A stretch of DNA of 64,000 bases from Alphaproteobacteria bacterium (GTDB lineage: Bacteria; Pseudomonadota; Alphaproteobacteria; RF32; CAG-239), in NCBI GenBank assembly GCA_017937705.1, contig JAGBDC010000024.1:11079-75078 (forward strand), given 5' to 3'. The notes beneath the pieces were generated by a model. The model was not told where the DNA came from. It searched no databases and saw only the letters and a program-made list of their open reading frames with translations. How positions within the stretch are numbered: the first letter of the stretch is position 1; each line of letters opens with the position of its first letter. This document shows, in pieces, positions 20,852 to 46,436 of the stretch. The position numbers were made by a program, and so were the translations under genes.

Positions 20852-21190
20852 ATGCAATTTATTAAGAAAAATATCTGGACATTAGTGGCAATGATTTTTG
20901 TCGTTACTGTTGCTATGATTGGTGACGCTTGTGCAGATGACGTTATGGGTTTAGCGTTGACTAAAACACGTAACGTGTTTGAAAAAGTAAAATCAATCAT
21001 CTTTGTTCTAGGTGGATTTGGTTTGGTAGCCGTAGCTTTCTTGGCTATCTTTGGTAAAGTTAACTGGAAATGGTTTGCTGGTTTGGCTGTAGGTTTGGCT
21101 ATTTTGGCTGCTGCAAATGCTGTTGTTCAATACTCTGCAGGTGCAAATGCTGGTTTGAATGATACATTCCAACAAACATCAACCATGTAA
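20852..21190 (+). CDS. virB2: VirB2/TrbC-family T4SS pilin, paralogue 1
   Basis: 112 aa. A long signal peptide is followed by two hydrophobic helices (IIFVLGGFGLVAVAFLAIFGKVNWKWFAGLAVGLAILAAANAVVQY), as in VirB2 (PF04956). GGAG precedes the start. Confidence 0.75.
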   Translation: MQFIKKNIWTLVAMIFVVTVAMIGDACADDVMGLALTKTRNVFEKVKSIIFVLGGFGLVAVAFLAIFGKVNWKWFAGLAVGLAILAAANAVVQYSAGANAGLNDTFQQTSTM

Positions 21191-21273
21191 TTACTTAATA
21201 AAATCGGGGGAGCTGTCGCAGCTCGCAATAGCTCCCTCAAATTTCAACAAAAACAGGTAGGAAGGAAAAGAAA

Positions 21274-21612
21274 ATGTTGTACGTAAAATTAAAGAAAATA
21301 ATTTTATTGACATTGGTTGCGTTCATCGTTTCTTCAATTTTATTTGCAACCAATTCTTTTGCCGCAGATTCGGGTTTGTTTGCTGACTTGACAGCAAAAG
21401 GAAGAGAAATCTTTACCGGAATGCGGGAAATTATTTTTGCCGTTGCCGGTTTTGGTATAATTGCTATCGCTGTAGGCGGTTTCTTCGGTAATTTTAACTG
21501 GAAATGGTTGGGGGCCATCATTATTGGATTGATGGTAATTGCGCTAACTTCAGGTATTATTGAGTACATGGTTGGTTCTGATGTGCTCGATGTACAAGAT
21601 ACCTTAAAATAA
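21274..21612 (+). CDS. virB2: VirB2/TrbC-family T4SS pilin, paralogue 2
   Basis: 112 aa with the same architecture as paralogue 1, including the conserved FG-x-(V/F)NWKW motif (IIFAVAGFGIIAIAVGGFFGNFNWKWLGAIIIGLMVIALTSGIIEY). Confidence 0.75.
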   Translation: MLYVKLKKIILLTLVAFIVSSILFATNSFAADSGLFADLTAKGREIFTGMREIIFAVAGFGIIAIAVGGFFGNFNWKWLGAIIIGLMVIALTSGIIEYMVGSDVLDVQDTLK

Positions 21613-21626
21613 TAAAGGAGGGTGTT

Positions 21627-44100: not shown

Positions 44101-45453
44101 ATAGCATTGACACCGGATGGAGAGTATTTAGGTGATATTCTTGAAGATGGAAGTGTTATCAATAAAGCCGGTAAAGTTTTAGGAAGATTGCTACCGGACG
44201 GATTGGTCGTTGATGATCAAGGTTCTCTAATCGGTATAGAAGAGTCTGCAAAAAAGAGCGAAAAAAGCGAAATGTTTGTTCCTGCCGGAAGTTTTGGTGA
44301 TGGTGGAGCATACGGAATCGGAACCGGACCGGGTAATTTAGGACCGGGAGGCGGTTTTGGTCCGGGAGAAAGATATGATGTTCAACGTTCTGCCGCATTG
44401 AGTGCAGCTCAGGGTGAGCGTCGTCAAAATATGGAAGTAGGAAAGATAAGTACGAATCACAGTAAAGAGGCTTTTGATCAAAAACAAAAAGATTGGGGAG
44501 TGAAAAAGGTTATTTCTACTTGGCCGGTTGATATGGATATGATGATTTTGGCTGATAAACCTATTCCTGCGGTTATCGCACGTTCTATTGATACCGAACA
44601 CGAAGTTCCGGTTACAGCCTTTGTTGAAAGAAATGTATATGCTGAAGACGGAAGAAATATCATTATTCCAGCCGGTAGCCGATTGATGGGAAGCTGTGGG
44701 GGCGGCGATGGCGGATCTGAAGAATCTTCAGCTTCTGCCCGTATAAGCATCCAATGGGATAGATTGATTTTGCCTAATGGTGTTATGTTTGATATAAGCA
44801 GTGCACAAAGCGGTGATGCTCAAGGACGCGGTGGTGTTTTAGGATATCTTGATCGTCAATTGGTTAAAAAATATGCGATGCCTCTTGTTACTTCTTTAGC
44901 TAAAAACGGTCTGGCAATCTTGTTTGCGACTAAAGAACAAACTCAAACAGATGTGGCAACATCTAAACAAGAAGCTATGAATGATGCTCGAGAAGAATTT
45001 TTGAATGATTCTCAGCAAATGTTCCAACAAATATTGTCTGACAGGGCAAATATTCGTGCAATTACTTATATTCCTGCCGGTACCAGAATTACCGTTTATC
45101 CGAAAGTAGATTTATGGTTAAGAACAGTAGAAAACGATGCTGAAGCAAGTGATAATACAGAATATAAAGATGTATTAATTGACGATAAGGCCACATCAAA
45201 TAAACGAGCCAGCGACGAAGCAGATCGTAAAGCAAACTTCGGTAAGGGAATGTCATCTGTGGTGTATGAGGAAGAAGAAACCGATGCCAAACCTGCAATG
45301 GCTTTAGTAGATGACGTTGCCGCTTCGGGTAGTAAAAAACGTCGTCCTACCGGAGCAACTCCACCACCACCTCCGAGTGCCGGTGTAGTATCTGCTAACA
45401 GACCATCGTCAAGCAGTTCTGGTAGTAGCAGTGATGTTCCGCAACTATTCTAA
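41131..45453 (+). CDS. virB10: T4SS protein VirB10 with ~1000-aa N-terminal repeat expansion
   Basis: 1440 aa with a TTG start 7 nt after GGAGGA. A signal/anchor sequence is followed by the same ~17-residue repeat family up to about aa 1000. A Gly-rich linker leads to a TrbI/VirB10 domain (WPVDMDMMILADKPIPAVIARSIDTE...IIIPAGSRLMG...ARISIQWDRLILPNGVMFDI...GYLDRQL). A Pro/Ser-rich C-terminal tail follows. Confidence 0.8.
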   Translation: MILKLNSKICKFFQTIGLAVFMLCSGNAVAQEITAIDFNGDLIGKVIPDGKVVSFDNQLIGNITADSLIVDFNGKLIGGVIPRGIAIGNDNRMLGKVSNDGTVRLSTGKIIGKVLPNGLVVDDKFDILGSVLFPGLIYSDEGQTMGRLTGDGMYANLQGQTIGFVSPDGYAYRKIGNDYILDGRLISSKMVIDSTGQFIGSIAPGGKITNFDGKNIGFIKANGFAYNEDNKVIGSIVRSGYAFDIAGKYLGLVTYNGEVINGEKLVGYLQVDGSIANTGGEIIGFMVDIAATAADNTGKYLGRIMPEGKIARGRNIIGQIGPWNVIYDREGNQIGKEIISGPIFDYRGGLRAHALKNGRVILLGGTPLGTMKGDLAIDSTGQVIGSVLRNQVVFNANNQPMGITGINSTITNSDDTRIVSPFGYVYNPEGGIDGSTVPLGGVFGLGGSPLAMISPNGELINKGAVQQGKLTQFGFDISERNAVLGGNINVDYAVDFKGASLGALADGNQILNKNLDVFAKILPDMSVISGVDKSTYMPVEGKASSATLALAYDGTLLGFVDNQGLVKDAASTIVGKVSSKGMVFDNTGISIGEVINYSPVINNKCEFIGVVSPSGEVKNYREVSMGKALANGNVVADGGSMIGFAIPKGTIVDFGGQVIGTTTSNGKVLNYSGENLGCIDRQHRLYNKQNALIGKLAIIAPVMDLNNKIIGRSMIDGSVVNDSSQNIGYILPDDSVNSKTGEKMGMLFKYRYAFDKNNKLAGIVNDKAEVINSKGQKTGNVDIDGNATINGDSKGYALYDMYVYGDNNTVIGYIAPDGNIISFTNQKLGKLVRGFAVDNKGKMFARGNRDFYIANKNGDTIGELRFDGNVVNNNGEVIGSLGVAGDIEATDGEVIATAKPLQYYEAEKKKPVYDQNGNVIGYVGEDNKIVDAKGNLIGQLAKDGSAISVDGDVIGNTKLDWYERPTVRDQNLPEVGSIEVKESDYKKSVNIALTPDGEYLGDILEDGSVINKAGKVLGRLLPDGLVVDDQGSLIGIEESAKKSEKSEMFVPAGSFGDGGAYGIGTGPGNLGPGGGFGPGERYDVQRSAALSAAQGERRQNMEVGKISTNHSKEAFDQKQKDWGVKKVISTWPVDMDMMILADKPIPAVIARSIDTEHEVPVTAFVERNVYAEDGRNIIIPAGSRLMGSCGGGDGGSEESSASARISIQWDRLILPNGVMFDISSAQSGDAQGRGGVLGYLDRQLVKKYAMPLVTSLAKNGLAILFATKEQTQTDVATSKQEAMNDAREEFLNDSQQMFQQILSDRANIRAITYIPAGTRITVYPKVDLWLRTVENDAEASDNTEYKDVLIDDKATSNKRASDEADRKANFGKGMSSVVYEEEETDAKPAMALVDDVAASGSKKRRPTGATPPPPPSAGVVSANRPSSSSSGSSSDVPQLF

Positions 45454-45467
45454 AAAGGGGAAATAAA

Positions 45468-46436
45468 ATGAGTTTTGAAGTACTGGAATCTGTTTTACGA
45501 CCGCTTTCTTACTGGTATAACCAGGAGAATATAGAAGAAGTTGCCATCAACAGAGAAGGGCAAGTCTGGTTACGATTACGCGGTAAGAGAGCGTACCCAT
45601 GGGTCATGTATAAAGACGAAAAATTAACTAAAGAATATTTGACCGATTTGTTATATATTATTGCTAATACTTATGAGCTTCCGTTTGATCCGGTATCCGG
45701 TACGCCGGTAGTTTATGCGACTATTCCCGGAGAACACCGTTTCTCGGCAATCTGCGGTAAGAATGTGATGTATGATGAGGGAGATATTACCGGAGGGGTT
45801 GCTTTAGCAATTCGTGTTCATAGCGATGATGTTGCTTTCGGTTTAGGTGATTACGGATTGAAACAAGGTGAAAAGTTACACCAAATAAACCCGTTAAAAA
45901 CAATTAAAGATCCTGAAGATCCATACGAAAGGTTACTGTTAAGTATTAAACGCGGCGATCATATTCTGGTGAGTGGTGCAACCGCAACCGGTAAAACAAC
46001 ATTTTTGAATAACCTGTTAAAGATTTTGGATATTCATAAACGTGTAATTACCATTGAAGATGCTCGAGAATTGTTAGTTCCGCACCCAAATCGTGTTCAC
46101 GTTGTAATGTCTCGTACCGGACAAACCAATAAATTTGACTATAAAGGTATTATCGACTTAGTAGTACGTTTTACTCCCGATGCTATTATCGGAGGTGAAA
46201 TTTCTACCGGTAATGCCGGTGCATTATGGGAACTTATGGGATCCGGTCACGATAACTGTCTGGCAACCATCCACGCAGAAAATTCCGAAGCGGCCTATGA
46301 GGCATTTATGGATCGTATTTTGCACTCATATCCGACAATGGATAGAAAAAAGACTATTGAAGAAATGCACAAAAAACTGCGTGTAGTTCAAATTAATCGT
46401 GACGGAAACTTGCGTGCAGTTACCGAAGTTACCTAA
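45468..46436 (+). CDS. virB11: T4SS ATPase VirB11
   Basis: 322 aa. It carries Walker A SGATATGKTT, VITIEDARELL, PDAIIGGEI and the His box LATIHA. Confidence 0.9.
   Translation: MSFEVLESVLRPLSYWYNQENIEEVAINREGQVWLRLRGKRAYPWVMYKDEKLTKEYLTDLLYIIANTYELPFDPVSGTPVVYATIPGEHRFSAICGKNVMYDEGDITGGVALAIRVHSDDVAFGLGDYGLKQGEKLHQINPLKTIKDPEDPYERLLLSIKRGDHILVSGATATGKTTFLNNLLKILDIHKRVITIEDARELLVPHPNRVHVVMSRTGQTNKFDYKGIIDLVVRFTPDAIIGGEISTGNAGALWELMGSGHDNCLATIHAENSEAAYEAFMDRILHSYPTMDRKKTIEEMHKKLRVVQINRDGNLRAVTEVT

Follow-up and report, generated by a model that had tools for sequence, protein, structure and literature searches.

The stretch of DNA analyzed here, 64 kb of contig JAGBDC010000024.1 of an alphaproteobacterium (the window), contains at positions 20852 to 46436 an operon that the listing of open reading frames (ORFs) and Pfam define as a single plus-strand unit of genes for a VirB-type type IV secretion system (T4SS). 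The operon is genuine and intact, is under strong selection, and represents a VirB-type T4SS variant not described before, with two defining features, namely, an expanded family of secreted proteins (S1 to S4) at the position of VirB6 and a VirB10 module enlarged by repeats. It combines this S family with a pilin that bears a long extension, a repeat-containing VirB10 with a predicted signal peptide, and a repeat-containing partner anchored in the inner membrane. The original prediction, made from the sequence alone, did not recognize the architecture as a described one, and none such was found in the literature that could be searched, which yielded nothing on T4SSs in RF32 or CAG-239 or on T4SSs without VirB6. 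We read the operon as the vertically inherited chromosomal VirB-type T4SS of uncultured alphaproteobacteria of animal guts, a non-conjugative machine that presents the S proteins, and we give this reading, taken as a whole, an even chance of being correct.

Genes were called from the ORF list with Pfam and NCBIfam scans, BLASTP, tblastn, hhalign, and hydropathy. Transmembrane (TM) segments were called from Kyte-Doolittle hydropathy alone, with a 19-residue window and a threshold of 1.6. The gene list of the original prediction was correct, as judged by Pfam, BLASTP, hhalign, and position. Of the parts that characterize a minimized, MPF-T-like T4SS of the VirB/VirD4 type, the operon encodes the VirB4 ATPase, the outer membrane core of VirB7, VirB9, and VirB10, the pilin VirB2, VirB8, VirB11, and, mainly by position, VirB3. 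The features of the operon are as follows (aa, amino acids; dN/dS, ratio of nonsynonymous to synonymous substitution rates).

20852-21190, plus strand: VirB2 pilin a, 112 aa; Pfam TrbC/VirB2 at 33.3 bits, above the cutoff; signal peptide and two TM segments
21274-21612, plus strand: VirB2 pilin b, 112 aa; Pfam TrbC/VirB2 at 30.9 bits
21627-22991, plus strand: extended VirB2-like protein, 454 aa; residues 109-168 match VirB2a (BLASTP E value, 2e-9)
23125-23415, plus strand: VirB3-like protein, 96 aa; Pfam VirB3 at 14.6 bits, below the cutoff; the call is mainly positional
23405-25837, plus strand: VirB4 ATPase, 810 aa; Pfam CagE_TrbE_VirB at 44 bits; dN/dS of 0.01
25916-27475, plus strand: S1, 519 aa; signal-peptide protein with a VirB5-type mature N terminus (GLPTVD...); dN/dS of 0.17
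27475-28119, plus strand: S2, 214 aa; signal-peptide coiled-coil protein; dN/dS of 0.12-0.17
28116-29324, plus strand: S3, 402 aa; secreted helical protein and best candidate for a VirB5 orthologue
29321-33247, plus strand: S4, 1308 aa; secreted protein at the virB6 position; dN/dS of 0.11
33261-34019, plus strand: VirB8a, 252 aa; Pfam VirB8 at 65.7 bits; divergent paralogue, 32% identical to VirB8b
34119-34307, plus strand: VirB7-like lipoprotein, 62 aa; lipobox LLTGC; shared SPCAC motif
34319-35047, plus strand: VirB8b, 242 aa; Pfam VirB8 at 88.8 bits; orthologue of the VirB8 of the plasmid lineage described below
35049-36719, plus strand: VirB9-SPOR, 556 aa; Pfam CagX at 45.6 bits and a C-terminal SPOR domain at 24.5 bits
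36716-41128, plus strand: giant repeat protein, 1470 aa; Pfam Bflower_2 at 341 bits, DUF3659, and RHS_repeat
41131-45453, plus strand: VirB10, 1440 aa; Pfam TrbI at 119 bits at the C terminus; Bflower_2 at 202 bits
45468-46436, plus strand: VirB11 ATPase, 322 aa; Pfam T2SSE at 69.8 bits; dN/dS of 0.003
46455-46480, plus strand: terminator-like stem-loop that ends the operon; 11-bp stem with 6 GC pairs and a T-rich tail

A scan of GTDB species representatives with VirB4 returned 258 relatives, of which 80, with identities of 77-99%, were kept. According to titles and sample names, nearly all of these 80 are metagenome-assembled genomes (MAGs) from gut or rumen (human, roe deer, yak, chicken, and Hadza), and their records are entitled Alphaproteobacteria, 'Proteobacteria bacterium CAG:495', 'Ca. 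Scatocola', and 'uncultured Azospirillum/Rhodospirillales'. VirB4 relatives are thus present in at least 258 species-level genomes, and the clade, which probably corresponds to the GTDB order RF32, is common in the guts of humans, ruminants, and birds. In the comparison with close relatives, dN/dS was 0.003-0.05 for the machine, 0.03-0.05 for the giant repeat proteins, and 0.07-0.17 for S1 to S4 and the extended pilin (0.13 for the latter). Every gene of the operon is under purifying selection, and the proteins between virB4 and virB8 (the slot) evolve roughly 10-fold faster than the machine. Amino acid identities agree, since the core proteins are highly conserved in the relatives and those of S1 to S4 and the extended pilin fall to 25-50%. 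The dN/dS of VirB11 is below that of the housekeeping gene tgt; the stronger purifying selection on the ATPases indicates that the machine is probably central to the lifestyle of these bacteria. A pseudogenized remnant was rejected, as dN/dS is well below 1 for every gene.

The operon is chromosomal, because it is flanked by housekeeping genes, with tgt following the terminator downstream of virB11, and because several assemblies show identical synteny. An exact copy of VirB11 was found on many metagenomic contigs and in two NCBI MAGs, with identical flanks.

Plasmid relatives and changes in the gut clade

When VirB4 was compared with PLSDB by tblastn, three outliers were obtained, from Microvirga (38% identity), Sphingosinicella (35%), and Erythrobacter aureus (35%); Paracaedimonas plasmids followed at 29%, and the remaining matches, to classical VirB/Trb systems, were at about 25%. 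The three outliers, located on plasmids of 347-731 kb and, as far as could be found, uncharacterized, are as follows.

Microvirga sp. VF16 pMVF16-3, NZ_CP069357.1: plasmid T4SS operon
Sphingosinicella sp. BN140058 p1, NZ_CP035502.1: plasmid T4SS operon
Erythrobacter aureus YH-07 plasmid, NZ_CP031358.1: plasmid T4SS operon

Their order is MobA/MobL ... VirB2-VirB3-VirB4-VirB5-helical protein-VirB7-VirB8-VirB9-VirB10-VirB11-VirD4, where virD4 follows virB11 directly or after two small ORFs. VirB5 measures 250-270 aa, and that of Erythrobacter scores 30 bits against Pfam PF07996; next to it in the slot is a helical protein of 420-450 aa without TM segments, the second slot protein. The gut operon shares with these plasmids the core sequences, the gene order, and the presence of non-membrane helical proteins between virB4 and virB7/8. 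VirB9 is 35-36% identical to its counterparts in all three plasmids, with a C terminus weakly similar to the Erythrobacter and Sphingosinicella VirB9s (E values of 2e-4 to 1e-3). Identities to the Erythrobacter proteins are 40% for VirB11, 34% for the VirB10 barrel, 31% for VirB8b, and 34% for the VirB7-like protein, which has the PCAC motif in common with the lipoprotein at the Erythrobacter VirB7 position; VirB8a is 23% identical to plasmid VirB8. From these sequences we infer that the gut operon probably stems from an uncommon line of T4SSs whose only other members seen are those of the three large alphaproteobacterial plasmids.

The comparison with the plasmid operons shows what changed in the gut clade. 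(i) The MobA/MobL relaxase and VirD4, which the plasmids have kept, are gone from the locus. (ii) The single pilin gene was triplicated and the single virB8 was duplicated around virB7. (iii) The non-membrane genes that follow virB4, two in the plasmids and four here, were expanded to 4-6 Sec-exported paralogues that include a giant of 1200-1650 aa. (iv) About 2300 residues of 17-aa beta-hairpin repeats were added to VirB10 and a new partner anchored in the inner membrane; plasmid VirB10 has 529-590 aa and its own TM anchor, as opposed to the 1440 aa of the gut-clade protein, and the plasmid operons contain no giant repeat protein. No SPOR domain was detected by Pfam in the plasmid VirB9s.

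The 347-kb 'plasmid' p1 of Sphingosinicella, of which positions 1-50000 were inspected (locus L092), carries, in addition to the T4SS, genes for DnaE, DnaN, and several DNA methyltransferases as well as a type IV pilus set of its own (ATPase, T2SSF, and secretin). Most of its other genes are hypothetical, and it has the look of a giant extrachromosomal element of an unusual kind.

The S proteins and the enlarged VirB10 module

In the roughly 70 related loci that span the slot, it encodes 4-6 signal-peptide proteins, the last of which is a giant of 1200-1650 aa, and hydropathy revealed no credible polytopic protein there in any of them. In the window, S1, S2, and S4 have a single N-terminal signal-peptide-like hydrophobic segment, nothing in S3 exceeds the threshold, and no internal TM segment was found in S1 to S4, which bears out the earlier claim that the four slot proteins carry signal peptides only and no TM helix. 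The same hydropathy scan identified no polytopic protein anywhere between positions 20852 and 46436. A library of 1.84 billion cluster representatives contains 247 of the S4 family. Nearly all of those listed are 1200-1850 aa long, and among the 147 that this search newly returned there was no protein with more than one internal hydrophobic segment.

S1 to S4 matched no specific family in Pfam or NCBIfam, including PF07996 (VirB5). With moderate confidence, we consider them a paralogous family that is probably derived from VirB5, to which a number of sequence similarities point. (i) The mature N terminus of S1, GLPTVD, resembles the N termini of plasmid VirB5s (GIPVID, QIPTID, and QVPVLD), and S3 and S4 bear an [IL]-D-F variant of this motif. 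(ii) The S proteins are linked to each other by hhalign (values are probabilities), namely, S3 to S4 (95%, over the N-terminal ~200 aa, with 226 aa of S3 aligned to the N terminus of S4), S1 to S3 (86%, over the N-terminal ~45 aa including the signal peptide), S2 to S4 (84%, over about 60 aa), and S2 to S3 (75%). (iii) Weak links connect the VirB5 of the plasmid lineage to the N terminus of S1 (78%) and to the C-terminal part of S3 (66%), and phmmer searches with plasmid VirB5s matched mostly proteins in the S3 position. S4 showed no similarity to the second slot protein of the plasmids (hhalign, 0.2%). Profile searches of the PDB with the S1 and S3 families returned coiled-coil noise only; a control search with the plasmid VirB5 profile likewise returned only coiled-coil matches (e.g., coronavirus spike HR1) and no chain bearing the name of a T4SS protein. 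Since this control missed the solved VirB5 structures, the PDB search is too insensitive here and the negative results for S1 and S3 carry no weight. The profile of the second slot protein of the plasmids had no matches in the PDB.

The AlphaFold2 (AF2) model of S3 was poor (predicted local distance difference test score [pLDDT] of 45) and unusable. That of S4, with a pLDDT mostly above 70 at about residues 340-1200, predicts helical hairpins of great length, with an alpha/beta domain at the C terminus. A Foldseek search of the PDB with this model retrieved nothing with an E value below 0.01; the alpha-pore-forming toxins AhlB, SmhB, and MakA were matched at E values of 0.3-0.5 and target TM-scores of 0.3-0.4, which are not significant. 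This weak likeness is one of the points in favor of a two-step exporter similar to the Bordetella Ptl system, in which S1 to S4, and chiefly S4, would be Sec-exported cargo that a pseudopilus pushes through the outer membrane. All four S proteins also start in a signal-peptide-like manner and are encoded inside the operon, no type IV coupling protein (T4CP) is encoded nearby, and the model of Ptl has Sec-exported cargo as the analogue of VirB5 (PMC12857230). However, apart from the lack of significance of the fold matches, Pfam and NCBIfam detected no enzymatic or toxin domain in the S proteins, and the N-terminal module common to S3 and S4 and the VirB5-like start of S1 are as expected of parts that dock to the machine. 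We consider such an exporter unlikely.

The second defining feature resides in VirB10 and the 1470-aa giant repeat protein. The latter consists of an N-terminal tail, one TM segment (residues 23-41), a domain similar to choice-of-anchor D (choice_anch_D of NCBIfam at an E value of 2e-6, below the cutoff), and about 70 repeats of 17 aa, and it has a dN/dS of 0.03. VirB10 is composed of a signal-peptide-like N terminus, about 1100 aa of the same repeats, the TrbI barrel, and a Pro/Ser-rich tail. None of its segments exceeds the TM threshold, and the hydrophobic N terminus is followed by an A-x-A-Q-E sequence (AVAQE here and AQAQE in locus L091); we read this N terminus as a probable cleavable signal peptide in place of the usual N-terminal anchor. 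Tandem Repeats Finder reported no DNA-level repeat array in the two genes, only two trivial 2-copy matches, which together with the dN/dS of 0.03-0.05 indicates that the repeats are old and conserved. The idea that the 1470-aa protein might be the detached N-terminal half of VirB10, prompted by the architecture and a short C..G..L..C.V motif, is a hypothesis only; hhalign gave 0.8%, and hidden Markov models see no matching domain in the N termini of plasmid VirB10s.

The giant repeat genes are split in some assemblies, as in L002 (5667-9986, with 204 + 1204 aa) and L091 (17948-22736, with 742 + 897 aa), which reflects either assembly errors in repeats or real frameshifts.

As to the pilins, the 454-aa VirB2-like protein has a two-TM pilin core followed by a C-terminal extension of about 290 aa and no Pfam match; its orthologue in L085 reaches 1168 aa, with a sub-threshold TrbC match. 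The three VirB2-like genes, along with the 4-6 S-family genes across species, agree with the earlier proposal that the pilus-type parts have been amplified. The VirB3-like gene lies directly upstream of virB4 and overlaps it, and its product is 59-100% identical in the relatives.

VirB6, coupling protein, and relaxase

That the locus contains neither VirB6 nor a coupling protein had been predicted and was borne out by Pfam, hydropathy, and tblastn. No VirB6/TrbL was detected in the operon or the window by Pfam, by hydropathy, or by tblastn with bona fide VirB6, and Pfam found no VirD4 in the window. In tblastn searches for VirD4 and relaxase, with queries from the plasmid relatives, and for VirB6, no match was obtained in the window or in 86 related loci, each comprising the T4SS with flanks of 10 kb. 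Outside the operon, the polytopic ORFs of the window belong, according to Pfam, to ABC-transporter, nucleoside-transporter, T2SSF, or Mrp-antiporter families; the one exception, 53984-55636, matches nothing in Pfam and immediately precedes the Mrp genes. The idea that the locus, as it now stands, is a conjugative element was rejected, given that neither relaxase nor T4CP is encoded nearby.

The plasmid relatives were inspected likewise. No polytopic ORF at all was found within 20 kb on either side of virB4 in Erythrobacter; the 20-kb flanks in Microvirga contained no VirB6-like gene but only a VUT-family protein (5 TM segments) and a 228-aa protein with 3 TM segments; and no VirB6-like gene was present among the operon genes of Sphingosinicella, the part checked. 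The Paracaedimonas operon, used as a control, encodes a normal VirB6 (PF04610, 29 bits, four TM segments). The plasmid operons thus also lack virB6 in the slot, indicating that this layout predates the gut clade; the plasmids combine it with both a relaxase and a coupling protein.

The 228-aa protein of Microvirga pMVF16-3 (L087 23216-23902) is encoded between VirB5 and the second slot protein, in the Microvirga operon only, and has no family match, including TrbL; the Erythrobacter and Sphingosinicella operons are free of membrane-protein genes from virB4 to virB8.

The absence of VirB6 from the operon is real and clade-wide. The situation beyond the operon is different. When hydropathy was applied to all fetched loci, a polytopic protein was identified at the far left edge of two of them, L085 (13-1371, plus strand) and L056 (2-1078, plus strand). 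The ORFs run off the flank and encode at least 452 aa with 4-5 TM segments and a Gly/Ala/Lys-rich tail. The sole Pfam match is TrbL/VirB6, over profile positions 74-192 of 215, and the scores of the two orthologues, 20.8 and 17.9 bits, are below the cutoff of 25.9. The operon of both loci is that of the window, down to the slot devoid of TM segments. In L085, the VirB6-like gene is located about 3.5 kb upstream of virB2-virB2-virB2x-virB3-virB4, from which it is separated by genes for a Xer-type recombinase, shikimate kinase, ROK kinase, and purine nucleoside phosphorylase; in L056, it occupies the equivalent position beside the xer gene. The same xer/aroK/ROK context upstream of the operon was observed in seven further species, in which the recombinase gene is at the very edge of the fetched flank and a VirB6-like gene may lie just beyond it. 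The window, whose upstream context differs and consists of a pilus cluster, contains no homologue of this protein. A tblastn search of PLSDB with the VirB6-like protein gave no match, hhalign against the Paracaedimonas VirB6 gave 10%, and a profile search of the PDB returned noise.

That VirB6 is absent from the genome is therefore unproven and, since two relatives carry a VirB6-like gene outside the operon, doubtful. The proposal of a T4SS without VirB6 holds for the operon and is undermined by the gene in L085 and L056; a virB6 elsewhere, which the original prediction had itself named as an argument against it, has probably been found in these relatives, with the sub-threshold TrbL/VirB6 match noted above. 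On balance, we find it rather probable that a VirB6-like gene is located elsewhere in this genome and improbable that the machine truly lacks VirB6.

Two alternatives follow from these data. In the first, the system would be an ordinary, complete, effector-translocating T4SS with a dispersed layout in the style of the Rickettsiales vir homolog (rvh), with VirB6 and VirD4 encoded in other islets and S1 to S4 acting as accessory or effector proteins. The TrbL/VirB6-like gene occupies its own islet in L085 and L056, and the xer/aroK/ROK context reaches the flank edge in the seven further species. Furthermore, the virB2 genes are missing upstream of virB3 in L009, L029, L047, and L091, which indicates that T4SS genes are sometimes dispersed in the gut clade, and rvh sets a precedent both for scattered islets and for the B8-B7-B8 order (PMC2653234). 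However, no VirD4 homologue was found in the window or the 86 loci, virB11 is followed here by the terminator and tgt and in the plasmid relatives by virD4, and the VirB6-like assignment is sub-threshold. We regard this alternative as possible but rather less likely than the presentation of S proteins by a non-conjugative machine.

In the second alternative, the T4SS would truly lack VirB6 and the coupling protein, and soluble, VirB5-derived helical proteins would replace the periplasmic stalk or platform formed by VirB6. The slot lacks a polytopic gene in about 70 species, and no member of the S4 family among the 147 newly returned exceeds one internal hydrophobic segment; the plasmid relatives, which possess relaxase and T4CP, likewise show none in the flanks scanned. 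A soluble replacement is conceivable, given that most of the R388 VirB6 resides in the periplasm, with no more than two helices as its membrane anchor (PMC12857230). On the other hand, VirB6 is highly conserved among all T4SSs (PMC12857230), a VirB6-like gene is found near the same operon in L085 and L056, the hhalign comparison of S4 with the second slot protein of the plasmids gave the 0.2% mentioned above, and the scans were confined to the plasmid flanks and gut loci. This alternative is very unlikely in our view. Its broadest form, in which the plasmid lineage and the gut clade both work without a canonical VirB6, and the surface or contact organelle of the gut clade, on which a whole order depends, also works without a coupling protein, deserves equally little credence. 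Were VirB6 dispensable in the gut clade or the plasmids, this would contradict the view that all T4SSs conserve it; for the gut clade, we consider this unlikely. In any event, the operon is a natural experiment on which parts of a T4SS can be moved, split, or replaced.

Comparison with known systems, proposed function, and neighboring genes

The order B8-B7-B8-B9-(giant)-B10-B11 had been recognized as that of rvh, and it matches islet C of rvh (B8-B7-B8-B9-B10-B11), one of its scattered islets (PMC2653234). Further likenesses are several VirB2 copies, a duplicated VirB8 flanking VirB7, virB3-virB4 followed by a tandem array of large paralogues (islet A), and a chromosomal, vertically inherited location (PMC2653234; bioRxiv 10.1101/2025.08.29.673095). 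However, the rvh array after virB4 consists of five polytopic VirB6 paralogues, whereas TM-free secreted proteins are found here; rvh lacks VirB5, whereas the array here is probably VirB5-derived; and in rvh virD4 follows virB11, and VirB4 and VirB9 are duplicated, whereas the window has the terminator and tgt, one VirB4, and one VirB9. The likeness does not appear to extend to sequence kinship, since the nearest VirB4s among plasmids are those of the three non-rickettsial ones (35-38%). VirB8a and VirB8b each match several PDB entries named VirB8, whose source organisms are unlisted, these being the best matches of VirB8b, which also matches TrwG; at an E value of ≤0.01, neither protein matched a chain deposited under the name Rvh or Rickettsia.

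With the Cag system of Helicobacter pylori (CagY and CagX), the operon shares a VirB10 enlarged well past 1000 residues by repeats, CagY being a VirB10 homologue that owes its more than 1000 residues to internal repeats. The CagY repeats are direct repeats at the DNA level that recombine, whereas there are none such here, and recombining repeats of this style were rejected because Tandem Repeats Finder reports no array. Cag also differs in having a T4CP (Cag-beta) and a VirB6 analogue.

The Trw system of Bartonella resembles the operon in the lack of a T4CP at the locus, in several variable copies of pilus parts (VirB2 and VirB5, the latter represented here by the putatively VirB5-derived S proteins), and in that a conjugation machine is the ancestor of what is now a fixed part of the chromosome. 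In Trw, the amplification of VirB5 extends to VirB6 (TrwI) and VirB7, whereas the gut operon has a single VirB7 and no VirB6 in the array. Furthermore, VirB8 is not duplicated in Trw, which also lacks a giant VirB10 and a repeat protein, and Trw is close to the Trw of R388, whereas VirB8b matches TrwG only at an E value of 4e-4. Trw has been proposed to build variable adhesive pili (PMC12857230; PMC2883598), and we consider the analogy, already drawn in the original prediction, a reasonable one.

Other systems without a coupling protein are Bordetella Ptl, Brucella VirB, and Helicobacter ComB, and systems devoid of a T4CP are known to serve either as organelles of the pilus or adhesin kind or for export in two steps (PMC12857230). 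For the substrates of Ptl and some of those of Brucella, Sec provides the passage across the inner membrane and uptake then occurs from the periplasm, and ComB comprises homologues of VirB2-4 and VirB6-10, so that VirB6 is kept (PMC12857230). Ptl and ComB differ from the gut operon in lacking VirB5, ComB moreover in lacking VirB11, and none of the three has an S array or giant repeat proteins. Ptl, Brucella VirB, and Trw also keep VirB6. Among the T4CP-less systems, Trw appears to be the nearest in its logic; Ptl would be the nearest if the S proteins were cargo.

From gene content and evolutionary rates, we infer that the most likely product of the operon is an organelle for contact or surface display, or else a two-step exporter, by which the fast-evolving S proteins are presented to a host or partner cell. 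In the mechanism that we propose, (i) the Sec system would export the pilins and the S proteins; (ii) VirB4, VirB11, VirB3, VirB8a/b, and probably a VirB6-like protein encoded elsewhere would assemble a VirB2 pilus or pseudopilus; (iii) this pilus would pass through the enlarged outer membrane complex of VirB7, VirB9-SPOR, and VirB10; and (iv) the S proteins would dock via their VirB5-type N termini and be displayed at the tip or surface or released, so that a host or partner cell would meet them as variable proteins of contact or as effectors. The machine would not be used for conjugation.

Several points weigh against the non-conjugative presentation of S proteins. The function, be it adhesion, secretion, or DNA uptake, is deduced from gene content and evolutionary rates alone. 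The VirB5 homology of the S proteins is weakly supported, with no Pfam, NCBIfam, or PDB matches and a failed AF2 model of S3. The VirB6-like protein of L085 and L056 is below the Pfam threshold and has no match in PLSDB, its gene could belong to another element beyond the fetched flank, and the orthologue in this genome is extrapolated from these two relatives. Finally, the absence of VirD4 applies to the window and the 86 loci and not to whole genomes.

Directly upstream of the T4SS and divergent from it, the window contains a complete type IVb pilus cluster of the R64 type (9783-18840, minus strand), which encodes a PilS/bundlin pilin, T2SSF, a T2SSE ATPase, a PilP-like protein, PilO, a secretin, and TcpQ/PilL. 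Its ATPase and secretin are 31% and 28% identical, respectively, to those of Sphingosinicella p1. Between this cluster and virB2 lies a fast-evolving 530-aa ORF (18928-20520) without family match. The adjacency of pilus cluster and T4SS is kept in most related loci, the exceptions being L009, L035, L041, L056, L085, and some others; in L091, a type IVb pilin gene of the PilS/bundlin type (3124-3708) is found immediately upstream of virB3. The G+C content is 0.38-0.42 over most of the pilus cluster and the second half of the T4SS operon (8001-14000 and 34000-46000), as compared with 0.30-0.36 in the flanking housekeeping regions; an ancient acquisition of the two clusters from a foreign source would fit this difference. 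The terminator and pilin pseudogene that had been noted after virB11 correspond to the stem-loop at 46455-46480 and to the minus-strand ORF 46542-46901. This ORF, just after virB11, duplicates the type IVb pilin gene 9783-10394 without its 5' part: its product shares 57% identity with the C-terminal part of that pilin over 61 aa and lacks the leader and the hydrophobic helix. It may be a duplicate in decay or else a silent cassette from which the pilin could be varied.

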